64,000 bases of DNA from Candidatus Eiseniibacteriota bacterium (GTDB lineage Bacteria; Eisenbacteria; RBG-16-71-46; JABDJR01). The stretch spans positions 320,001-384,000 of the forward strand of contig CAVXKA010000002.1 of the NCBI GenBank assembly GCA_963762255.1, read 5' to 3'. The position numbers and the translations under genes are program-made. Shown one piece after another: positions 10,336 to 20,344 of the stretch (its first letter is position 1; the number at the start of each line of letters is the position of its first letter). Below the pieces are notes generated by a model. It had not been told where the DNA came from, did not search any database, and saw only the letters and a list, made by a program, of their open reading frames with translations.

Positions 10336-11849
10336 CGCGCGCGCCTCCTGAGCAGGGCCGTCGCGGTGAGCGCGGCGAGAAGCCCCGCCACCACCCAGAG
10401 CACCCAGTTTCCGTGTCGCGCGTAGAAGGTGAGCTCGCGTCCCAGCTCCACCGGCGCCACCAGGTTCGTCTGCTCGAAAGTGCGCGACGACAACTCGACC
10501 GCGCCGTAGGGCGTGATCACCGCCGAGATCCCGGTGTTGGCGGCTCGCGCCATCCCCATCCGGTTCTCGATCGCCCGCAGGATGTTCATCTCGAAGTGCT
10601 GGACCGGCGCCGCCGAGTCGCCGAACCACTGGTCGTTGGTGATGTTGACGAGGTAGCGCGCGCCGTTGCGCGAGAGATCCCGCGCCGGGCCCGGAAAGAT
10701 CGACTCGAAGCAGATCAGCACGCCGAACGGAACCCCGGCCTGGTCGAAGACCCCCGGCCTCGTCCCGACGGAGAAGTTGGACTGGCCGAAATCGTAGCGA
10801 TTGAGAAAGGGTAACGGAAAATATTCGCTGAACGGAACCAAATGACGTTTATCGTATTGGGCGACGATGCCGCGGCCGGGGAGGATCAGCGCCGCGGAGT
10901 TCGTCCACCGCAGCGACCCGTCGGGGAGGCGCTCGCCGTCGGGGAAGCCGGCCAGGAGCGGCACCTGCGCGCTGTCGACCAGGCTCTCGACCATCTGGCG
11001 GTAGCGCGGCTCGCGGGGAAGCCGCACCGGAATCGCGGTCTCGGGCCAGACGACGAGCGCGAGCGGAGCGCCGCGGTTGGCGGCCACCAGTTCCTCGGTG
11101 CGCTCCAGCAGCGCGATCACCACGCTGTCCCTCACCCCGAGTTGCCACTTCTCGTTGCCCACGTTCGGCTGAACGATGCCGACGTCCACCGTAGGAGACG
11201 GCTCGCTCCCCCGCAACACCCAACGGCCGTGCTGGTAGGGGGCCACCGTCACCGCGGCCAGCACGAGGAGCATGGTGATCTTGGGGAGCATCCAGCGCGC
11301 GGCGAGGTAGGAATGGACGAGCCCGCTCACCAGGACGACCCAGAGGGTCACGCCCCACACGCCGGTCAGCGATGCGAACTGGATGAGATGCGGCAAGGGG
11401 GCGAGCGCGTAGCCGAGCGAGCCCCATGGAAAACCGAACGTGCCGGTGCCGCGGAGCGCCTCCGTCAGCGTCCACACGAGCGGAAAGGAAAGGCCGAGCG
11501 GCACGCCGCGGCGCTGCAGCCACACCGCAAAGGCCGCGGCCAGCGCGGGGTAGAGCGCCAGGTAGGCGACCATCAACGCCAGCGCGGGGTACATGAGGAA
11601 CGGAACGGTCACGTTCTCCGGAGGCAGCAGCGGAATCCAATAGAGCAGGATGATGAAGAAGACGGCGCCGGTGATGTAGCCGAGACCGAACGCGCGCCGC
11701 GGGGAGACGGTTTCGCCGATCGGCCCGTGAGGGGGCTTGAGCGCGATGAGGAGCGGAAGGAGGGCGACCAGCGAGACCATGCTCAGCGAAAACTTGGGAA
11801 ACGCCAGAGCAAGGAGAACACCGGAAAGAGCGGCGAGCGCGCGCTTCAC
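10332..11849 (-). CDS. lnt: Apolipoprotein N-acyltransferase
   Basis: GFPWGSLGY, VQPNV, WPETA, YDKRHLVPFSE, ICFESIF, NITNDQWFG, RAANTGIS (E-K-C triad). Confidence 0.96.
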   Translation of the reverse strand: MKRALAALSGVLLALAFPKFSLSMVSLVALLPLLIALKPPHGPIGETVSPRRAFGLGYITGAVFFIILLYWIPLLPPENVTVPFLMYPALALMVAYLALYPALAAAFAVWLQRRGVPLGLSFPLVWTLTEALRGTGTFGFPWGSLGYALAPLPHLIQFASLTGVWGVTLWVVLVSGLVHSYLAARWMLPKITMLLVLAAVTVAPYQHGRWVLRGSEPSPTVDVGIVQPNVGNEKWQLGVRDSVVIALLERTEELVAANRGAPLALVVWPETAIPVRLPREPRYRQMVESLVDSAQVPLLAGFPDGERLPDGSLRWTNSAALILPGRGIVAQYDKRHLVPFSEYFPLPFLNRYDFGQSNFSVGTRPGVFDQAGVPFGVLICFESIFPGPARDLSRNGARYLVNITNDQWFGDSAAPVQHFEMNILRAIENRMGMARAANTGISAVITPYGAVELSSRTFEQTNLVAPVELGRELTFYARHGNWVLWVVAGLLAALTATALLRRRAR

Positions 11850-11854
11850 GAGGG

Positions 11855-12877
11855 TCAGCCGAGCCGGATCTCGCGCCCTTCCAGGGCCGACTGATAGGTC
11901 GCCTCCAGGACGCGCAGCACGATCAGAGCATCCTCCCCCGACGAGACCGGAGTGGCGTCCCCCCGCACGCAGTCCACGAAGTGACGGATTTCGTTCTCAT
12001 AAGAGAGCTTGTACGTGTTGCGTCCGGTCGTCAGCGTCGGGGTCACGTTGACCAGGCTCCCGTGCATCTCCTTGTGCAGCCGCAGGGGATTCATGAGCGC
12101 GGCGCCGCGGTCGCCGAAGAGGTTCAGGTAGGCGAAGTCGCGCTCCATGAGAAGCCCCAGCGACACCTCCAGGGTGATGGTGACACCCCCTTCCACACGC
12201 AACAGCGCGGCCGCGCTCGTCTCCAACTCGTCGCGCTGCGGGCGCGGGTACGCGTTGGCGGTCACCGCCTCCACCTTCGGCATGCCCAGAAGCCACAGGG
12301 TCGTGTCGATCATCTGGGTGCCGAGATCGAGGAGCACTCCGCCGCCGGCGTAACGCTTCTTGGTCTTCCAGCTCTCGCCCCCCCAGTTTGCGGGTTGCAT
12401 GAGCCAACCGGTCTTCGCGTAGTAGACCGTACCCAGCTCGCCCTCGGCCACGAACCGCTTGAGGATCGCCGCGTCCTCGCGATAGCGGTTGTTGAAGCCG
12501 CTCATGAGGAGCTTCTTCTGCTTCTTCGCCGCCGCCACCATCTGCTCGGCTTCCTTGCTGTTCCGCGAGAAGGGCTTCTCGCAGAGCACGTGCTTCCCCG
12601 CTTCGAGGGCGGCGATGGCGGCCGGCGCGTGCAGGTGGTTGGGAAGACAGATGTCGACCGCGTCCACTTCATCCATGTCGATGAGATCCTGAAAGGACTT
12701 GGTCACGCGGGGCACGTTGAATCGCGTGGCCACGCGCTGCCCCTTGGCGAGATCGAGATCGCACAGCGCGGTCACGCTCACCCCCGGGATGCGCGCGTAC
12801 GCCGGGAGATGACTGACCTGGGCGATTCCCCCGACTCCGATGACCCCGATCCGGATCTCGCGTTCATCCTTCACCAC
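11855..12877 (-). CDS. Gfo/Idh/MocA family NAD(P)-dependent oxidoreductase
   Basis: GVGGIA Rossmann motif, AGKHVLCEKP, GGGVLLDLG. Confidence 0.9.
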   Translation of the reverse strand: MVKDEREIRIGVIGVGGIAQVSHLPAYARIPGVSVTALCDLDLAKGQRVATRFNVPRVTKSFQDLIDMDEVDAVDICLPNHLHAPAAIAALEAGKHVLCEKPFSRNSKEAEQMVAAAKKQKKLLMSGFNNRYREDAAILKRFVAEGELGTVYYAKTGWLMQPANWGGESWKTKKRYAGGGVLLDLGTQMIDTTLWLLGMPKVEAVTANAYPRPQRDELETSAAALLRVEGGVTITLEVSLGLLMERDFAYLNLFGDRGAALMNPLRLHKEMHGSLVNVTPTLTTGRNTYKLSYENEIRHFVDCVRGDATPVSSGEDALIVLRVLEATYQSALEGREIRLG

Positions 12878-13902
12878 GACGCCCTACCCTCCATGCGCAC
12901 GGTACCGTCGCCCGGCACCACGTCGCCGATCACGAACCCGCCGAACCCGGCGCCGGTCAGCGCCTCGTCCACTCGCTCGCGGTCCACCCCAACGATCAGA
13001 CCCACGCCCATGTTGAAAGCGCGGAACATCTCCGTCTCCGGCACCTCGCCGCTTTCGGCGATGAGCTTGAAGAGCGGGGGCACGCTCCAGGCGGAGCATT
13101 TCACGCGCGCCGAGGTTCCCTCGGGGAGCACGCGGTTCAGGTTGCCGGGGATCCCGCCGCCGGTGATGTGGGCGGCCCCCTTCATGATCCCGCGCAGCGC
13201 GCGCAGGACAGGTCGATACGACCGATGCACGGCCAGCAGTGCGTCCCCCAGCGGAACCCCGGCACCGGGCACCTCGGCCTCTGGCGAGAGTCCCGCCTCA
13301 TCAAAGAGCGCGCGCCGGGCCAGCGAGTAGCCGTTGGTGTGAAGGCCCGTCGAGGGGAAGCCGAGAAGCGCGTCGCCCGGCCTGAGCGTGCGGCCGTCGA
13401 CGAAATCCTCGCGGCGCACCGTGCCCACGATGCATCCGACGAGGTCGAGATCGGGAGGGGTGTAGATGCCCGGCATCTCGGCGGTTTCCCCGCCGAGGAG
13501 CGCGCAGCCGTTGGCCCGGCACCCGCGCACCACCCCCTCCACCACCTGCTCCACCGTTGCCGGATCGAGCTTGCCCATGCCCACATAATCCAGGAAGAAG
13601 AGCGGATCGGCCCCGTGCACCCCGATGTCGCCCACGCAGTGGTTGACGAGATCCTCGCCAACGGTGTCGTAGCGGCCGAGCCGAGCCGCCACCTTCAGCT
13701 TGGTGCCTACGCCGTCCACGCTGGCCACCAGAAGGAGGTCGGGATCCCCGCCGGGAATCGTGCACACGCCGCCGAAGGAACCGAGGTCGGTGAGCACGTT
13801 GGGGCCATAGGTGGAGCGAACCCGCTCCTTGATGCGACGAACCGCCTCCCCGCCGGCGTCGATGTCCACTCCGGCGTCGCGATAGTGGAGGGGCGGCGTC
13901 AC
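12871..13902 (-). CDS. purM: Phosphoribosylformylglycinamidine cyclo-ligase (AIR synthetase)
   Basis: YRDAGVDI, DGVGTKL, GGETAEMPG, GLHTNGYSL, HITGGG, FNMGVG. Confidence 0.96.
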   Translation of the reverse strand: MTPPLHYRDAGVDIDAGGEAVRRIKERVRSTYGPNVLTDLGSFGGVCTIPGGDPDLLLVASVDGVGTKLKVAARLGRYDTVGEDLVNHCVGDIGVHGADPLFFLDYVGMGKLDPATVEQVVEGVVRGCRANGCALLGGETAEMPGIYTPPDLDLVGCIVGTVRREDFVDGRTLRPGDALLGFPSTGLHTNGYSLARRALFDEAGLSPEAEVPGAGVPLGDALLAVHRSYRPVLRALRGIMKGAAHITGGGIPGNLNRVLPEGTSARVKCSAWSVPPLFKLIAESGEVPETEMFRAFNMGVGLIVGVDRERVDEALTGAGFGGFVIGDVVPGDGTVRMEGRASW

Positions 13903-13912
13903 GGCGACCCCC

Positions 13913-15307
13913 CTACACCGTGCTCGCGCTGACGAGCTCGGGCCGGGCCAGCGGCTCCGGCTCGACCGCCGCCGGTAGCGTCGGAGTCCCCACCTTGATC
14001 TCGCCGCGGGAAACGAGACGCTCCAACGCTTCCACCACCGCCGGATCGAATTGCGATCCCGTGCAACGGCGCAGCTCGGACAATGCCTTCTCCAGCGTGA
14101 ATGCCTTGCGGTAGACCCGGTCGGAGGTCATGGCGTCAAACGCGTCCGCGACCATGACGATGCGCGCTCCCAACGGGAGATCGCGGTTCGGGAGCCGATG
14201 GTAGCCGTTTCCGTCGAGCCGCTCGTGGTGGAATCGCACCAGCGGAGCCACCGGTCGGAATGCGCGCACGCGCTCGAGGATGTCCGCGCCGAGTCCGGCG
14301 TGCAGGCTGACATGGTCCATCTCCTCGCGCGTCAGAGGGCCGGGCTTGAGGATCAGTTCCCGCTGCGAGGTCTTGATCTTGCCGATGTCGTGCAGGAGGC
14401 CGCCGTACTCGACCTTCTCCACCGCCCGCTCGGGGAGACCCATCTCGCGCCCGATCTGTCCGGCGTAGCGGCTCACCCGCTGCGAGTGCAGGCTGGTGTA
14501 GGGATCGAACTCGTCGATGACCCCCGCCAGCACGCCCGCGAAGTCGATGAGATCGCGCTTGGCTTCGGCGTAGAGCTTGAAGCTGTAGCGGGCGAGGAGG
14601 AGCGGCAGAACGAAGAGCACGACGCCCCACACGCCGAGCGCTCGGAAGGCCACCGCGAGCGCGGCACCGAAAGGCAGCGAGGCCACCATGTGGAAGATCG
14701 TCCAGACGTAGTTGATCTGCCACACCTGCCACATGCGCCGGCGCTCCGAGAGCGCGATCACGGTGCTCACGATCAGCGTGTTGAGCGTGTAGTACGCGAG
14801 CCCCATGCCGAGGATGGGGACAAGGCTCTGCGGGAACGCCAGCGCCTCGCCGGGCACGCCCCCCAGAAGCTGGAAAACCCGACCGGCCACGAGCACCGTG
14901 CCGGCGAAAGCCGCGGCGTTGAACACCGATTTCTGGAATGGCCGGCGCTGACACCCGACCTGCAGCACCAGAGTGGCCATGAACTCGGCCAGCGCGGTGG
15001 GTATCGGGCCGAGGATGAGAATGCCCGCGTAATCGACGGTGGAGGAGACGGTGATGTAGCCGCCGCCGGGCAGCGTCACCGGAGCGGCATCGGTGACAAG
15101 GATGAGCAGGGCCCAGAGAAGGATCAGAAGCCACGGTGCGCCGACGAGACCGGGGACGCTCCAACCCAGGAGAAGCAGCCCCCCGCCCACGATGAAGACG
15201 TAGTAAGGCATGAACCAGCGGGACGGTTGCACCGCAATCGATCCGGCGCAGACCGGGGACGCCGGCGCACCGTCTCTCCTCGCGCCTCCCCACAGGCGCA
15301 TCCGCAT
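13913..15307 (-). CDS. Membrane-bound HD-GYP domain protein (putative cyclic dinucleotide phosphodiesterase) with multi-TM N-terminal sensor
   Basis: About 7 hydrophobic segments, then DPYT..HSQRV, LLHDIGK, HHERLDGNGY, ARIVMVADAFDAMTSDRVYR. GGAGG upstream of ATG 15307. Confidence 0.9.
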   Translation of the reverse strand: MRMRLWGGARRDGAPASPVCAGSIAVQPSRWFMPYYVFIVGGGLLLLGWSVPGLVGAPWLLILLWALLILVTDAAPVTLPGGGYITVSSTVDYAGILILGPIPTALAEFMATLVLQVGCQRRPFQKSVFNAAAFAGTVLVAGRVFQLLGGVPGEALAFPQSLVPILGMGLAYYTLNTLIVSTVIALSERRRMWQVWQINYVWTIFHMVASLPFGAALAVAFRALGVWGVVLFVLPLLLARYSFKLYAEAKRDLIDFAGVLAGVIDEFDPYTSLHSQRVSRYAGQIGREMGLPERAVEKVEYGGLLHDIGKIKTSQRELILKPGPLTREEMDHVSLHAGLGADILERVRAFRPVAPLVRFHHERLDGNGYHRLPNRDLPLGARIVMVADAFDAMTSDRVYRKAFTLEKALSELRRCTGSQFDPAVVEALERLVSRGEIKVGTPTLPAAVEPEPLARPELVSASTV

Positions 15308-15359
15308 GGTCAGAGCCCTCCGTTAAAAATGAACCGGCCGACGAATCACTACCCTGCGA

Positions 15360-15422
15360 CTAGATCCACCCGGACTTGCCGTCAAAAATCAGGGACATAA
15401 GGCTCAAGAGAAGCTCCCACAT
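15360..15422 (-). CDS. Unannotated 20-aa peptide MWELLLSLMSLIFDGKSGWI
   Basis: Manual translation from ATG 15422 to TAG 15360. AAGGAG RBS at 15430-15435, 7 nt before the ATG. Lies in an otherwise empty intergenic gap. Confidence 0.6.
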   Translation of the reverse strand: MWELLLSLMSLIFDGKSGWI

Positions 15423-15525
15423 AGCCACACTCCTTGGTTTGGGCTTGATGCATGCTGGCTGCCGTGTGGATCGCTTCGCTCTTTCGCTTGCTTGGCTCCG
15501 TTACGCGCTTTGGTGGATGTCTGTC

Positions 15526-16290
15526 TCAGGACATGGTCGTCGGCCGGATCTCGTACTCCACCGGCTCCCGGTACCGGAGCCTGCCCAGAGTACGATTGAG
15601 GCTGTCCAACGTACCATAGACCACGGACTGCTGCAAATCGTGGCTGACCACGCAAGACCCGGTTAACGTCTTCTCGATTCGATCTTTAAAGAACTTGATT
15701 GCAACGAGAACTACCTCCTCCCCCCCGAACTCCAGAACCTCGAGATCGATCAGGGAGAGGACGTAGGAATCGTCCAGGAAGCGTGAAATGGCGGAGAGCG
15801 TCGCCTCCGCGATGAGCCGCGGCACCTGGCGCCGGGTATTGGCCCCCACCGCGTCGCCCACCGCCTCGCGATCCCCAAGCGAGAGTTCCACGCGGGCCCG
15901 GCAGGTGGACTGGTCGATACCGACGGTCACCCCCACGAACCGGAGCCGGATGGCTGCGGGTTCCTCATCGACGCGCCCCGCGGGGAGGGTCAGCACGGTG
16001 GGAAGCGTTCGGGCCGCCGGCTCGGGCACCACCTCCAGCGAGGGTTCGCGCTTCTGTGCTACCGAGATCTTTCGATAGTCGACGTCGACCTGGAACTCGG
16101 CGCGCAGAGCGGAGCGCACATCACGCACGATTTGCTTGGGAGGGCGCTGCCCTTCGGCCAGGATGCTGATCTCGGTGATCTCGCGGCCGTCTTCGGACAG
16201 CGTGATGCCGACCCCGGCGATGTCGCGGAGGCTGAGCAGAAGCTTCTCCGCTTGGGCCACCCAATCGCGGCCCCAGGACCCGTCGTTCAA
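15526..16290 (-). CDS. Conserved-looking hypothetical protein (PKQIVRD motif; C-terminal alpha/beta repeats reminiscent of the LeuA regulatory domain)
   Basis: Clean 254-aa ORF with normal composition, PPKQIVRDVRSAL..DYRKISVAQ and terminal YGTLDSLNR. Has its own promoter. Confidence 0.75.
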   Translation of the reverse strand: MNDGSWGRDWVAQAEKLLLSLRDIAGVGITLSEDGREITEISILAEGQRPPKQIVRDVRSALRAEFQVDVDYRKISVAQKREPSLEVVPEPAARTLPTVLTLPAGRVDEEPAAIRLRFVGVTVGIDQSTCRARVELSLGDREAVGDAVGANTRRQVPRLIAEATLSAISRFLDDSYVLSLIDLEVLEFGGEEVVLVAIKFFKDRIEKTLTGSCVVSHDLQQSVVYGTLDSLNRTLGRLRYREPVEYEIRPTTMS

Positions 16291-16322
16291 TCCGCCCCCT
16301 CTGCCAAGAAAGGTTGACCGTC

Positions 16323-16351
16323 TTTATACCAGAGCGGCCGGAAAGTGACAA
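16323..16351 (-). promoter_or_regulatory. sigma70-type promoter TTGTCA-N17-TATAAA
   Basis: Near-consensus hexamers with 17-nt spacing, 33 nt upstream of the 16290 start. Confidence 0.7.
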
Positions 16352-16370
16352 GGCTAGAGGGGACAACGCC

Positions 16371-17273
16371 TTAGAAAACCACCATCCGGTGCATCTCCTG
16401 AAACCGGGCCTCGATCTCCTCGCGGCTGGCGGTAGCCAGGCGCTCGAGGCTGAAGGCCTCCACCGTGAACGAGGCGAGAACGGTGCCGTAGATGGCGGCG
16501 CGGCGGACGTCCGCCTCCTGGCAGGGGGCGGGGCAGGAGGCCAAGTAGCCCAGGAACCCGCCGGCAAAGGTGTCCCCCGCTCCCGTCGGATCGTGAATGA
16601 CTTCGGTTGGGTAGGCGGGGGCGGAGAAGGTGAACTCGCGGGTGAGAACGAGCGACCCGTGCTCCCCCTTCTTGATGATGACCATGGGCGGCCCCATCTC
16701 CATGGTCTTGCGCGCAGCTCGCACCAGGTGGGGCTCTCCGGTGAGCATGCGGACTTCCTCGTCGTTGAGCAGCACCACATCCACGCGGCGCAGCGTGTCG
16801 GCGAGGGCCTCGCGGCTCCCCTCGATCCACAAGTTCATGGTGTCGAGCACCACGAGATCCGGCTTCTCCACCTGATCCAGCACCGCCGCCTGCAGCTCGG
16901 GATGGATGTTGGCCAGAAACACGTGACGGGAGCGGCGATGCTCCTCGGAAAGACGCGGCTGGAACGTGGCGAACACGTTGAGTTGCGTATCGAGGGTGCG
17001 GCGCGTGTTGAAGTCGAAGCCGTACTCCCCGGACCAGCGGAAGGACCGACCCGGCGCGACCACCAGACCGGAGATGTCGATCCCTCGCTCGCGGAAGAAG
17101 TCGATGTGCCGCCGGGGGAAGTCCTCCCCGACGACCGCCACCATCGATACGGGAGCGAAATGCTGCGCGGCCACGGAAAAGTAAGATGCCGACCCACCGA
17201 GGGCGTCGGGGGCCTCTCCGAAGGGCGTCTTTATCGAGTCCAGGGCCACCGAGCCCACCACGAGCACGCTCAC
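16371..17273 (-). CDS. PfkB-family carbohydrate/nucleoside kinase
   Basis: GSVALD, GGSASY, NDEE, DPTGAGDTFAGG signature. Confidence 0.92.
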   Translation of the reverse strand: MSVLVVGSVALDSIKTPFGEAPDALGGSASYFSVAAQHFAPVSMVAVVGEDFPRRHIDFFRERGIDISGLVVAPGRSFRWSGEYGFDFNTRRTLDTQLNVFATFQPRLSEEHRRSRHVFLANIHPELQAAVLDQVEKPDLVVLDTMNLWIEGSREALADTLRRVDVVLLNDEEVRMLTGEPHLVRAARKTMEMGPPMVIIKKGEHGSLVLTREFTFSAPAYPTEVIHDPTGAGDTFAGGFLGYLASCPAPCQEADVRRAAIYGTVLASFTVEAFSLERLATASREEIEARFQEMHRMVVF

Positions 17274-17310
17274 CTCGCTGATCCTCCTCTTCGGGCCGAG
17301 GGCCCGTTCC

Positions 17311-18962
17311 CTACATGCGCTCCGGGGCGTCGATGTCCAGGAGGGCGAGCCCGTTGGCCAGCACGAGCCGCGCTCCCTGGGTCAGAGCCAGTCGCGCGGC
17401 GCTGAGCCGGGGCTCGGCCCCCACCACGCGGCAATGGTGATAGAAGAGATGAAACGCCTGCGCGACGTCGCGGAGATACGTGGTCACCCGATGCGGCTCG
17501 CGCGCCTCGGCCGCTCCCGCCACCACCGACGGCAGCATGAGGAGGACCTTCATCAACTCCAGTTCCTGCTCCTCGACCAGGAGCGCCAGATCCGCCCCTT
17601 CCGACGACGGCGCTCCCTCTTCCGCCGCCTTGCGCAGAAGCCCCGAGATGCGGGCGTGGGCGTACTTCACGTAGAAGACCGGGTTCTCGTCGCTCTGCTT
17701 TCTGGCGAGATCCATGTCGAAGTCGAGGTGGCTCTCGGCGCGACGCTGCAGGAAGAAGAAGATCGCGGCGTCCTTGCCGACGTCCTCGAGGAGATCGACG
17801 AGGGTGATGAACTCCCCGCGGCGCTTGGACATCTTGACCGGTTGGCCGCCGGCGAGCAGGTTCACCTGTTGAACGATGAGCACTTCGAGCCAGTCGCGCC
17901 CGTAGCCCAGGGCCTCCATCCCCGCTTGCATGCGGCCGATGTAGCCGTGGTGATCGGGGCCCCAGATGTCGATGACCTTCTCGAACCCCCGCTCGTGCTT
18001 GTCCACGTGGTACGCGAGGTCGGCGAGGAAGTAGGTAGGCTCGCCGTTGGCCCGCACCAGCACGCGGTCCTGGTCGTCGCCGAAGGCCGTGGAGTGGAAC
18101 CACACCGCGCCGTCGCGTTCCTCGACCCGCCCCAACCGGCGCATCTCGTCGAGCGCATGCCACACCCGGTCCGGATAGAGCTCGCTCTGGCGGAACCAGC
18201 GGTCGAAGGTGGCGCCGTAGGCGGCGAGATCGCGCCGCTGCCAGGCCTGGATACGGTCCACGGCGATGCGGCTCATCGCCGAGCGCGGGCGCCCGCGTCG
18301 TCGAGGGCCAGCACGGAGTCGACCTCCGCCGCATCCAGCTCTCGCGCCACGTCCTTCAGGTACTCGCCCTGGTATCCCCCCTCCGGGATGACCGCCTCGC
18401 CCTCGCCGCGCGCCTCGCGCCAGCGGGCGAGAAGGCTCTCCCCGAGCAGGTCGATCTGCCGTCCCACGTTGTTCACGTAGAACTCGGAGGCCGCGTCGTA
18501 GCCCGCCGCGGCAAGCAGGCGCGTGAGCGCTCCGCCGAACGCCGCGGCGCGGGCGTTCACCACGTTCAGGGGGCCTGTGGGGTTCGCGCTCACGAACTCC
18601 ACCTGCACGCGCTTGCCGGCGCCGGTGTCGCTCTTGCCCCAGTCCGGTCCGGCGGCGAGGATCTCGCCGAGGCCCCGCTGCACGAGCGCGGGGGCGAGGC
18701 GAAGGTTGATGAAGCCGGGGCCGGCGATCTCGACCGACGCGAAGAGGTCCGCGCGCGCGCGAAGCGCGGCGGCCAGCGGCTCGGCCACCTCTCGCGGAGC
18801 CCGCCGGAGCGGCTTGGCCAGCAGCATCGCGGCGCTGGTGGCGAAGTCGCCGTGCCCCTTCTCGCGCGGGACTTCGATCTCGGCGACGATCCCGGTCTGT
18901 GCCGCCTCGGGCACCGCCTGCCGAAGCGCCTCGCTCAGCGCCTCACGAATCTGCCGTTCCAT
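17311..18962 (-). CDS. argS: Arginine--tRNA ligase, split by an indel about 18280
   Basis: HGDFAT, AGPGFIN, VEFVSANPTGPL, TYFLADLAYH, WGPDHHGY, KMSKRRG, NPVFYVKYAHAR, DALR-type C-terminus APERM. Confidence 0.93.
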
Positions 18963-19324
18963 CGTCCTTCTTCTCCAGCGGCGCGTCGGCCCACAACCGT
19001 TCCAGGGTGTAGACGTCGCGCGTGCGGGCGTGGAAGACGTGGACCACCACGTGCACGTAGTCGAGAAGCACCCACGTCCTCATCTTCATCCCCTCCACGT
19101 GCCACGGCTCTCTCCCCCGTCTCGCGCAAACCTTCCTCGATGCGCTCCGCCACCGCCGCCACCTGCGGCTCGGACTGCGCGCTCGCGATGACGAAGTAGT
19201 CGCAGACAGCGGCAGTCTTGCGCAGGTCGAGGACCACCACATCGGTGGCCAGCTTCTCGAGCGCAAGGTCCGCCGCACGGTCGGCCAGGGCGCGTGAGTC
19301 GGGGAGAGGGCGGGTCTTGTTCAC
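18943..19324 (-). CDS. rsfS: Ribosome silencing factor, indel about 19115
   Basis: DVVVLDL..CDYFVIAS in one frame; WVLLDY..VVHVF..RDVYTLERLW in the next. Confidence 0.9.
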
Positions 19325-19330
19325 GCCGGG

Positions 19331-20344
19331 CTACTGGCGCCGATCGAGAACGTACTCCACGGCGTCGTGGAGCGTGTCGCGAATGGGGTTGGAATCGAAG
19401 ACGTCGAGCAACTCGATCGCACGATCGGCGTAGCTGCGGGCGCGCTGGCGGGCGTAGGCGAGGCCGCCGTACTCGTCGGCGAAATGCGCCACCTCGGCGG
19501 CGCCCCCGTCGTCGAGATCGCCCGCGGTCATGCGCTCGCGGATGCGCTCCACCACGGCCGGCGGGGCGCTGCGCGCCGCGTGAATGAGGGGAAGCGTGAT
19601 CTTGCCGTCCCGGATGTCGGAACGTGTGTTCTTGCCCATGACATTGGCGTCACCCTCGATGTCGAGGATGTCGTCGGTGATCTGGAAGGCCATGCCGAGG
19701 TTCAGACCGAAATCGGTGAGCACCCGGCGCTCGCGCCCGTCTCCCCAGGCGAGGTAGGCGCCGATCTCGCAGGCGGCGGCCAGGAGTACCGCCGTCTTGT
19801 CCATGATCAGCCGGTTGTAGACCTCTTCGGTGAGGTCGAAGTTGAGCTGGTGCTCGAGCTCCAGCATCTCGCCCAGGCTCATGCGGTGAGTGGTGCGGGC
19901 CAGCACGTGCATCGGCTCCAACATCCCCCGCTCCACCAGCAGGAAGAAGGCCTTGGAGTAGAGATAGTCGCCCATGATCACCGAGGTCTGGTCGTTCCAG
20001 AGACTGTTCACGGTGGGAATGCCCCGGCGCAGGAAGGAGCGGTCGATGGAGTCGTCGTGGACCAGGGTGGCGGTGTGCACCAACTCCACGATGGTCGCGG
20101 CGAGAATCGCATCCGAGGAGGCCGGTCCGCGAAGACGGTTGACGAGCAACAGCAAGGTAGGGCGGAATCGCTTGCCGTTGGCCCGGAGCATGTGGGTCGA
20201 GATCTCGTTGATGAGCCGCACATCGGAGACGAAGAAGCGGGCAAGCTCTTCCCGGACCCGGGCGAGTTCGTCCCCCACCGGGCGCTGCAGGTCGTCCATG
20301 GTGACCCGAAGGCTCGCGTCCGTTCCCTGGGCTCTTTCCATCAT
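19331..20344 (-). CDS. Long-chain polyprenyl diphosphate synthase (IspB/HepT-like); start uncertain
   Basis: GKRFRP, LVHDDSID..RRG (FARM), FQITDDILD (SARM), GKITLP. Confidence 0.92.
   Translation of the reverse strand: MMERAQGTDASLRVTMDDLQRPVGDELARVREELARFFVSDVRLINEISTHMLRANGKRFRPTLLLLVNRLRGPASSDAILAATIVELVHTATLVHDDSIDRSFLRRGIPTVNSLWNDQTSVIMGDYLYSKAFFLLVERGMLEPMHVLARTTHRMSLGEMLELEHQLNFDLTEEVYNRLIMDKTAVLLAAACEIGAYLAWGDGRERRVLTDFGLNLGMAFQITDDILDIEGDANVMGKNTRSDIRDGKITLPLIHAARSAPPAVVERIRERMTAGDLDDGGAAEVAHFADEYGGLAYARQRARSYADRAIELLDVFDSNPIRDTLHDAVEYVLDRRQ

Follow-up and report, generated by a model that had tools for sequence, protein, structure and literature searches.

We describe a small open reading frame (sORF) of 20 codons that lies between two larger genes, here called A and B, in DNA from a Candidatus Eiseniibacteriota bacterium (GenBank assembly GCA_963762255.1, contig CAVXKA010000002.1, positions 320,001-384,000 of the forward strand; this whole stretch of 64,000 nucleotides (nt) is referred to as the window). 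Comparison of related loci indicates that the sORF is a genuine gene and the middle member of a conserved three-gene module, predicted to act in signaling, that is present in at least six phyla. Gene B encodes a membrane HD-GYP protein with a MASE9-like sensor domain, and the sORF is enclosed by a long-range RNA helix (P1) that begins in the stop-codon region of gene A. We tentatively favor, at chances that we put just short of even, the idea that the sORF product is a micropeptide that acts in trans as a partner of the MASE9 sensor and that the RNA gates its synthesis.

Results

Conservation and coding signal of the sORF

Loci were gathered through gene A: 30 came from 41 genomes of the window's class, 33 of which have gene A, and 80 were the best of 578 stretches, with one genome per species. 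Removal of duplicates left 104 distinct loci, of which 97 extend 300 nt or more past gene A. They span Candidatus Eisenbacteria (the group of the window), Gemmatimonadota, Bacillota, Actinomycetota, Armatimonadota and Atribacterota. An in-frame ORF of 13-45 codons led by a Shine-Dalgarno (SD) sequence is present in the gap between A and B in 89 of these 97 loci (88 found by script, with L094 added by eye); none was recognized in the other eight (L010, L018, L023, L024, L028, L069, L088 and L096). An earlier sequence-only reading of the window had pointed to a promoter-like site, gene A, an SD-led small ORF and gene B on the minus strand. All of these features are present, and the small ORF is kept at this position in related genomes far above chance.

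The way the sORF varies among relatives points to translation. Across four groups of equal-length ORFs, the variable sites at codon positions 1, 2 and 3 number 9, 8 and 20; 6, 2 and 15 (the window's own family); 15, 8 and 21; and 10, 5 and 14; pooled, they come to 40, 23 and 70 (chi-square p 2.8e-6). TAA, TAG and TGA are all used at the equivalent place among close relatives, and a group of short ORFs from Eisenbacteria has lengths of 13, 16, 17 and 18 codons, that is, variants that differ by whole codons. The residues V-L-V-T-L-V-L-A-G-G-A are invariant in Desulfosporosinus yet are spelled with different codons, and in two loci (L075 and L092, read by eye) synonymous changes in the A-G-G-A codons disrupt possible RNA pairing while the residues are retained. 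Judged from these alignments, the substitution pattern is that of selection on the translated peptide. Given the third-position excess and the retention of frame and SD, the hidden peptide gene proposed from the window's sequence holds up as a conserved, apparently coding gene.

The peptides share features near their C-termini. Of 84 distinct peptides (13-45 amino acids (aa), median 24), 81 have an aromatic residue within the last five positions, 72 have a glycine-rich motif within the last ten residues and 65 have a tryptophan among the last three; tryptophan is the terminal residue in 39, and many other residues stand there otherwise. The family of the window follows the pattern M-W-E-L-L-L-x-L-x-S-x-I-F-[DE]-G-K-S-G-W-[MI], and other Eisenbacteria peptides read M-[DE]-hydrophobic/acidic-L-G-[KR]-A-G-W; the window's peptide and most others from Eisenbacteria are acidic, amphipathic and 13-20 aa long. 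The search for ORFs with a ribosome-binding site and a G-x(1-3)-W ending, suggested by the sequence-only reading, finds them in the window's phylum, with endings of the form G-[KR]-[AS]-G-W(-x). Outside Eisenbacteria the peptides have a basic head and a hydrophobic stretch of ~16-19 residues (counted on the printed peptides): those of Bacillota, Actinomycetota and Atribacterota read M-K-[KR], ~15 hydrophobic residues and L-A-G-G-A-x-[FYW]-[KR]-x, and those of Gemmatimonadota end in G-G-R-N-D-W. The C-terminal unit can be repeated within one Eisenbacteria peptide, three times as DGK[GA]GW (L037:3892-4029) or as GGHAWW (L012:2293-2415) and twice as GGHTWW (the 35-aa sORF of L013), which suggests that this unit behaves as a functional module.

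The genome of the window holds one copy each of gene A and the sORF. Seven frames genome-wide end in G[KR][AS]GW(x)-stop, and the sORF alone among them is hydrophobic and adjoins gene A. Searches of Pfam and NCBIfam gave no family match for the peptides, the one weak N-terminal match being that of a single peptide to the PhrK pheromone family (E 0.048, 13.9 bits against a cut-off of 35).

Association of the sORF with genes A and B

Among the 85 distinct loci with at least 1400 nt past gene A, both the sORF and gene B follow A in 76. The sORF occurs without a B gene within ~1.3 kb in three (L025, L059 and L060), B occurs without a recognizable sORF in one (L018), and neither is found in five, including L028, L069, L088 and L096, where purM directly follows A. 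A B-type gene thus lies within ~1.3 kb of A in 77 of the 85 loci, and the neighborhood named in the sequence-only reading, PKQIVRD-type genes such as A beside HD-GYP genes, is real. The spacing is loose: across loci, anything between a few tens and more than 400 nt separates the sORF stop from B, a strong hairpin resembling an intrinsic terminator stands between the element and B in Gemmatimonadota, and in the genome of L060 a B ortholog lies ~4.5 kb further downstream on the same strand.

In relatives that lack both the sORF and B (L010 in addition to the four above), purM comes directly after A. By gene order, the sORF-B pair looks either to have been inserted into an A-purM arrangement or to have been lost from one.

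We also approached the association from gene B, using 11 genomes of the class with no match or a weak match to A. The sORF is present in 1 of the 11 MASE9-like loci (L124), which has the sORF and a sequence like the AGCGRAGCG motif described below, with no A gene within 1.3 kb upstream. A second MASE9-like gene in the genome of the window (L131, G000:C1:433123-433665 (+), a 489-aa frame that scores 25.1 bits, just above the MASE9 cut-off) has no upstream sORF, motif or gene A. Together these two results indicate that the sORF and the RNA belong to an A-linked subfamily of MASE9-HD-GYP genes and not to MASE9 genes generally; the element's link to the upstream gene A is no weaker than its link to the HD-GYP gene. 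Upstream of the MASE9-like genes of an Eisenbacteria family without gene A (L119-L123, from genomes G016, G023, G029, G035 and G040), a sigma-54-type TGGCAC-N5-TTGC sequence replaces the sORF leader.

A covarying helix encloses the sORF

The two arms of P1 lie in the stop-codon region of gene A and shortly after the sORF stop, with the sORF enclosed between them. The core of the helix, GGCCGAC/GUCGGCC, is conserved; the flanks vary by clade yet stay complementary, with arms such as UUUGGCCGAC/GUCGGCCAAA, UGGGCCAACGCCG/CGGCGUUGGCCCA, UAUUUUAGGUCGGC/GCCGACCUAAAAUA and GAGACCGACAUC/GAUGUCGGUCUC. Over 83 loci, the mean best-helix score is 28.9 when both arms come from the same locus, against 19.9 with the 3' window of another locus and 19.6 after shuffling. 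RNAalifold predicts P1 from 25 non-Eisenbacteria sequences. All 214 of the 214 cells in the pair count form pairs, a figure that owes something to alignment trimming (see Discussion), and compensatory changes occur in seven of the nine pairs. Cells in which both partners have changed number 41, against 9.7 +/- 2.5 in shuffles, and 0 of 500 shuffles reach 41. P1 is also found in 19 Eisenbacteria sequences (11 pairs) and in nine Actinomycetota sequences. A cross-phylum MAFFT alignment (A3) recovers P1 only; the internal helices required alignments at the level of clades.

The position of P1 relative to the two reading frames could be measured in the 51 of 83 loci that carry the strict core pattern. 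There the span from arm to arm is 181-311 nt (median 228; ~215 nt in the window), the 5' arm starts between -44 and +42 relative to the A stop (median +8); for the 3' arm, the median distance of its start from the sORF stop is 16 nt. The 5' arm of Eisenbacteria loci (the window, L008, L013, L015, L017, L049 and L050) overlaps the last codons of gene A, which encode a conserved ...E-Y-E-x-R-P-T-S, so this stretch appears to be under protein and RNA constraint together; the arm begins 3-12 nt past the A stop in Bacillota and Actinomycetota. On the other side, the SD of gene B lies ~10-50 nt past the P1 3' arm in the window, as it does in many loci of Bacillota and Actinomycetota, and T-rich tails after the arm recur in relatives (mean 4.7 T per 15 nt). 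The last sORF codons can pair alternatively with the P1 3' arm, with a small excess over shuffled sequences (14.7 against 13.1, p 5e-4). In L008 the K-A-G-W codons could pair with the arm as an 8-bp hairpin, with T7 after it.

A repeated motif and an anti-SD strand lie within the leader

Between P1 and the sORF sit one to three AGCGRAGCG(G) motifs. The shorter form GCGRARCG occurs at 10.08 per kb in 83 leaders against 0.145 per kb elsewhere in those loci (both strands), a ~70-fold enrichment, with no copy in 12 loci, one in 31, two in 28 and three in 12. The density of AGCGRAGCG genome-wide is 0.025 per kb.

Immediately 3' of the last motif comes a strand that pairs with the spacer between the SD and the start codon of the sORF. 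Its sequence is clade-specific while its complementarity is kept (GAGAAGAC:GUCUUCUC, GAUAUAGCCU:AGGCUAUAUC, GCGGUAAA:UUUACCGC and GGACCCAUCU:AGGUGGGUCU), and the mean pairing score is 17.7 within a locus against 15.0 across loci. The window's anti-SD strand, CCACAC, pairs with GUGUGG, a stretch that shares its first base with the end of the SD and extends toward the start codon. Laid by hand on alignment A4, this pairing fits many Eisenbacteria rows and is misaligned for the window's own family. A consensus fold of nine Actinomycetota sequences comprises P1, a hairpin with the first motif, a hairpin with ACUAGCGG in its loop and an 8-bp anti-SD helix; the ACUAGCGG hairpin has a compensatory change at one pair in three of the nine sequences. 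The start region of the sORF is sequestered in the predicted folds. At one locus (L007), codon 2 of the sORF is GTC (V) in place of TGG (W), and the strand after AGCGAAGCG reads GACC, which is complementary to GGTC. In this single case the anti-SD strand and the coding start seem to have changed in a compensatory way.

No Rfam family was found at E<=1 in positions 13000-17500 of the window or in the A-B gap of nine loci, nor did any leader in 20 further loci match at the gathering score. A raiA RNA upstream of gene A occurs in L078 and L106 and in none of the 20 further loci, and we regard it as probably incidental. The two raiA matches score 172 and 169 bits and come from different phyla, and L078 also has a c-di-GMP-I riboswitch (71 bits) upstream of gene A (features at L078:127-371 and 579-664; L106:2000-2216).

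RNA-library contigs cover the leader and the sORF

Four RNA libraries from four studies, out of 21 listed runs, were compared with the window, all four in the form of contigs; parts left uncovered carry no weight. A 166-nt contig from library X3 is identical to positions 15393-15558 at a word depth of 46, and a contig over the start of B in the same library has a depth of 3. A 262-nt contig from X2 with two differences covers 15381-15642, from the end of A through the leader to two thirds of the way into the sORF, and a 145-nt contig from X8 (record 8), also with two differences, covers 15337-15481, taking in the whole sORF and reaching into the P1 3' arm. The leader and sORF contigs from these three studies are 98-100% identical to the window, and X1 covers gene A at ~95% identity. 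These contigs give a weak hint that the element is transcribed, perhaps abundantly. Contigs stop at 15558 in X3 and at 15553 in X8, within a few bases of the P1 5' arm on its 5' side, although contig ends are not informative; one X8 contig runs on with unlike sequence at 15553-15558 and so derives from a relative with a different upstream context.

Gene B probably encodes a MASE9-type membrane HD-GYP protein

HD-GYP phosphodiesterases with membrane sensor domains are common, and we know of no input signal for the MASE9 class. Protein B matches the Pfam families HD_5 (E 9.4e-30) and HD (E 3.4e-19), has a multi-pass N-terminal half and gives a partial NCBIfam match to a NosR-family cyclic di-GMP (c-di-GMP) phosphodiesterase. 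Against MASE9 (PF20972) the window's protein scores 18.2 bits, or 20.2 in a six-frame search, with a cut-off of 24.3; 6 of 11 orthologs from other loci exceed the cut-off, with 25.5-48.1 bits. The signature HHExxDGxGYP is complete in 16 of 20 orthologs. The window's version, HHERLDGNGYH, keeps the tyrosine and has a histidine for the proline; GYH is also present in two other members of the window's family. By these matches gene B probably encodes a MASE9-type membrane HD-GYP protein, a predicted c-di-GMP phosphodiesterase. MASE9 is also carried by Thermotoga maritima and Thermus thermophilus.

The orthologs share with published MASE9-HD-GYP proteins both the MASE9 domain and a complete HHExxDGxGYP (Galperin and Chou, 10.1101/2021.11.05.467447); unlike those proteins, the window's own protein falls below the MASE9 cut-off and has GYH for GYP. 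The portions of that preprint available to us give MASE9 eight predicted membrane segments and carry the authors' suggestion that its ligand is probably bound within the membrane, which would fit a peptide regulator. These portions mention no accessory peptide, leader RNA or partner gene, unlike the A-sORF-B module. Prediction of a complex between the MASE9 domain of the B protein of L012 (alignment A5) and the 40-aa peptide of the same locus returned a score of 0.01 and 'no answer', and it weighs neither way.

Gene A encodes a predicted two-domain protein

Neither Pfam (E<=0.01) nor NCBIfam gave a family for protein A, which is predicted to be a cytosolic protein of two domains (AlphaFold2 model, mean predicted local distance difference test (pLDDT) 85.6, predicted template modeling score (pTM) 0.53). 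The N-terminal domain is ferredoxin-like, with the order alpha-beta-beta-alpha-beta, and its fold matches are generic at Z ~8 (EscJ/PrgK ring modules, C-terminal domains of cation-diffusion facilitators and ANL C-domains). The C-terminal domain consists of two beta-beta-beta-alpha units. Its residues 114-236 align with 3f6g_B at a VIA-align Z of 9.3 (root-mean-square deviation 2.9 A, 109 of 115 residues aligned), with a Z of 7.9 to 3fig_A and a Foldseek E of 1e-5 to 1sr9_B. The matched structures are the regulatory domains of citramalate synthase and LeuA, which bind isoleucine and leucine. On the strength of the model, the C-terminal domain has the regulatory-domain fold of LeuA and citramalate synthase, and the automatic ESM Atlas name of the nearest cluster agrees. 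At the sequence level there is no Pfam LeuA_dimer match, and a PDB sequence search with the family profile gave nothing better than E 0.49. Protein A shares this fold with LeuA and citramalate synthase (1sr9, 3fig and 3f6g); in contrast to them it has no catalytic TIM barrel, and a ferredoxin-like N-terminal domain is fused in its place.

The family of protein A is large, with 4005 cluster representatives at E<=0.001, 2747 at 1e-10 and 643 at 1e-30. Among the top 150 of these matches nearly all are stand-alone proteins of ~210-320 aa. The invariant residues of the family include R49, R56, R115 and R233.

Layout of the locus

The features of the locus are collected in Table 1. The gap between A and B is 218 nt long, with a G+C content of 0.52-0.57 against ~0.65-0.75 in its surroundings. 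The ORF list also holds an alternative upstream GTG start, with which the sORF would occupy 15360..15428. At the equivalent spot upstream of gene A, a TTGnnn-N17/18-TATAA[AC] pair is found in seven of eight relatives (three by regular expression and four by eye) and is absent in L007. A consensus scanner that requires T at position 6 of the -10 element listed no promoter, the site in Table 1 included. A terminator scanner listed a single terminator-like site, located within gene B, a lower number than in shuffled sequences.

Table 1. Features of the A-sORF-B locus, in window coordinates
Feature	Positions	Strand	Remarks
Promoter-like TTGTCA, 17-nt spacer, TATAAA	16351-16346 and 16328-16323	-	Upstream of gene A; putative function
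Gene A	16290-15526	-	254-aa ORF; TTG start behind GAGGGGG; PKQIVRD motif
P1 5' arm, CCGGCCGACGA	15547-15537	-	Within the last codons of gene A; complementary to 15344-15334
Motif AGCGAAGCG	15480-15472	-	Preceded by degenerate copy AAGCGAAAG (15489-15481)
Anti-SD strand, CCACAC	15469-15464	-	Directly 3' of motif AGCGAAGCG
SD AAGGAG and spacer GTGTGG of the sORF	15435-15430 and 15430-15425	-	
sORF, ATG MWELLLSLMSLIFDGKSGWI TAG	15422-15360	-	20 codons; AAGGAG 7 nt before ATG
P1 3' arm, TCGTCGGCCGG	15344-15334	-	Pairs with CCGGCCGACGA
T-rich run, TTCATTTTT	15333-15325	-	Directly past P1 3' arm; 4 nt ahead of gene B SD
Gene B	15307-13913	-	464-aa multi-pass membrane HD-GYP-type protein; motif HHERLDGNGYH; MASE9-like membrane domain
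purM	13902 (start codon, GTG)	-	10 nt past gene B stop

Discussion

How might such a module work? We propose that the RNA gates synthesis of the peptide, in that a ribosome reaching the end of gene A would open up the P1 5' arm; the location of this arm at the A stop codon suggests that translation of the sORF is coupled to that of A. The gate could instead be a factor that binds the AGCGRAGCG motifs and frees the SD. The repetition of this motif beside the anti-SD strand suggests a bound factor, and protein A, with its putative ligand-binding domain, is the obvious candidate. Once released, the peptide would act in trans on the MASE9 domain of B, or on A, and so set the rate of c-di-GMP hydrolysis. 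It would do so in most phyla as a basic-headed, single-helix membrane peptide and in the window's phylum as an acidic amphipathic helix ending in G-K-[AS]-G-W. We favor action in trans because the whole peptide is constrained, its C-terminal unit can be repeated, its last residue and stop codon are free, and the distance to B is loose. A more specific chain of events, in which protein A senses a small molecule through its LeuA-type domain, binds the AGCGRAGCG hairpins and opens the clamp formed by P1 and the anti-SD helix, after which the micropeptide docks on MASE9 and switches the HD-GYP domain, is rather unlikely to be correct in every step.

Several points weigh against a trans-acting partner of the sensor. 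The peptides of the window's family are too short and too acidic to span a membrane, so one mechanism, such as a plug within the membrane, cannot hold unchanged across the phyla. The short distance from the P1 3' arm to the SD of B and the T-rich run in Eisenbacteria are what a cis-acting switch is expected to look like, and the weak pairing of the last sORF codons with the P1 3' arm means that the conservation of the C-terminus could be partly driven by the RNA. The collection of loci is centered on A, and so are the association figures drawn from it. Alignments A3, A4 and A6 were trimmed at the ends given by the helix search, which makes the 100% pairing of P1 partly a matter of construction, although not its covariation. 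Finally, the RNA-library contigs show neither strand, ends, level nor translation, and DNA may be present in RNA libraries.

Because the sORF lies inside a structured RNA that sequesters its ribosome-binding site, a cis-acting role as a leader peptide is a serious alternative and the main rival; we consider it possible, if on the unlikely side. What would matter is then the act of translating the sORF and not the free peptide: a ribosome on the last codons would choose whether the 3' arm pairs with P1 or with the 3' end of the sORF, the output would be termination or translation of the downstream HD-GYP gene, and the conserved C-terminus would be an element for stalling or RNA pairing. Much of the architecture is consistent with such a switch, as the sORF lies wholly within a covarying structure whose 3' arm comes soon after the sORF stop (median 16 nt), the SD of B lies close behind this arm in the window as well as in many loci of Bacillota and Actinomycetota, Eisenbacteria have T-rich runs past the arm, the alternative pairing is slightly above that of shuffles, L008 could form its hairpin and T7, and a tryptophan so often stands in the last three residues (65 of 84 peptides). 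The details of the sORF fit less well. The last residue and the stop codon are not fixed, constraint at the amino-acid level extends over the whole peptide, with synonymous third-position changes throughout, and some peptides carry two or three copies of the C-terminal unit. The distance to B reaches more than 400 nt, Gemmatimonadota have separate terminator-like hairpins, one genome has a gap of 4.5 kb, and the scanner finds no terminator at the site of the P1 3' arm in the window. A signal for arrest at termination is disfavored, since the terminal residue and stop codon vary, as does the distance to B. The trans-peptide and cis-switch readings are not mutually exclusive.

The other explanations differ in what they take the peptide to be. 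Precursors of the SHP/XIP and Phr peptides resemble the sORF peptides in form, and the sORF product could be an exported and processed signal, its N-terminal part serving for export and a short C-terminal fragment (for example xF[KR]W) being sensed by the membrane domain of B. The peptides outside Eisenbacteria do follow a signal-peptide grammar of M-K-[KR], a hydrophobic stretch, L-A-G-G-A and 3-6 further residues, the C-terminal repeats of L012, L013 and L037 recall multi-copy precursors, and there is the weak match to PhrK. The score of that match is far under the cut-off, however, and the peptides of the window's family and most others from Eisenbacteria start acidic, are 13-20 aa long and are not signal-like, so we judge export improbable. 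The sequence-only reading had likened the peptide to a pheromone precursor feeding a quorum-like signal into the HD-GYP sensor. For the window's family this part of the claim finds no support: the N-terminus is acidic and not signal-like in peptides of 16-20 residues, and no exporter, protease or RRNPP/Rgg-type receptor was noticed among the neighboring ORFs in 11000-19500, five of which were scanned with Pfam. The neighbors are gene A (without a Pfam family), the HD-GYP gene, purM and a pfkB kinase gene, which is not the context of RRNPP/Rgg pheromones.

At the opposite extreme, the element could be a structured noncoding RNA that binds a protein or a ligand in the A-B operon and merely tolerates an ORF. 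Conservation of the RNA is strong, as seen in the covariation of P1, the enriched AGCGRAGCG motif and the internal hairpins; the start region is sequestered in the predicted folds, and the single case of L007, where a codon 2 change from TGG to GTC goes with a complementary anti-SD strand, would also suit an RNA element. We nevertheless find this very improbable, given that a third-position excess is seen in four independent groups, that 89 of 97 loci retain frame, SD and start, with whole-codon length variants in one group, and that the chemistry of the peptide is conserved while the nucleotides diverge between phyla. A type I toxin-like membrane peptide, with an mRNA held inert by 5'-3' fold-back and SD sequestration in the manner of hok and aapA1, would account for the small hydrophobic single-helix peptide of most phyla as well as for the long-range 5'-3' helix and the sequestered SD. 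It hardly seems credible for an element that is single-copy and holds a fixed synteny between two signaling genes over six phyla, in contrast to the mobile, multi-copy and fast-evolving type I loci, and whose peptide in the window is acidic and amphipathic with no transmembrane helix; no antisense RNA was seen, though none was sought.

Comparison with known systems places the module between several of them. Small membrane proteins that modulate sensors or pumps include MgrB-PhoQ, SafA-PhoQ, AcrZ-AcrB and KdpF-KdpABC. By analogy with MgrB-type modulators, the sORF peptides are a few tens of residues long, mostly form a predicted basic-headed hydrophobic helix and are encoded beside a membrane protein. 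They differ in that the putative partner is a MASE9-HD-GYP protein, a class for which we know of no micropeptide partner, and in that the sORF sits within a conserved RNA structure and is linked to a third gene, A; the peptide of the window differs further in being acidic and too short for a membrane span. Leader and arrest peptides such as TnaC, SpeFL, ErmCL and PepNL resemble the sORF in its 13-45 codons, its place in a structured leader before a gene that would be regulated, its fit within the ribosomal tunnel and the frequent tryptophan near its end. Unlike in the TnaC type, the terminal residue and the stop codon are not fixed (tryptophan last in 39 of 84 peptides; three stop codons), and unlike in leader and arrest peptides more broadly, the whole peptide is constrained, its C-terminal unit can be repeated, the distance to B is very variable and the helix around the sORF begins at the gene A stop codon. 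The fold-back mRNAs of hok and aapA1 and the dual-function RNAs with a small ORF, SgrS/SgrT and RNAIII/hld, offer an analogy in the long-range 5'-3' helix and the SD sequestration around an ORF for a small hydrophobic peptide. The sORF, in contrast to hok and aapA1, is chromosomal and single-copy with cross-phylum synteny, and it has no known antisense partner and no sign of toxicity.

The literature, which was available to us in part, yielded no account of a small ORF, an RNA motif or a micropeptide partner for HD-GYP or MASE9 genes. As far as we can see, what is new here is the tie to gene A and the LeuA-type fold of its product, the AGCGRAGCG motif and the placement of P1 at the A stop codon, and likewise the six-phylum range, the repeated C-terminal units and the B-centered control. 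The locus brings together three undescribed families: the micropeptides, an RNA of ~180-310 nt (median 228) that is without an Rfam entry, and the large two-domain family of protein A.

A micropeptide gene that precedes MASE9 enzymes in six phyla is a testable candidate for their input signal or for the control of their synthesis, and because several of the carriers are cultured anaerobes, it can be taken to the bench. Cultured carriers include Desulfosporosinus acididurans, D. paludis, Geosporobacter subterraneus DSM 17957, Caloranaerobacter azorensis DSM 13643 and Thermosediminibacter litoriperuensis DSM 16647. If the full chain from protein A to the HD-GYP domain holds, the module would be a self-contained signaling device shared across phyla, an RNA switch that is gated by a protein and that puts out a peptide to regulate c-di-GMP turnover.

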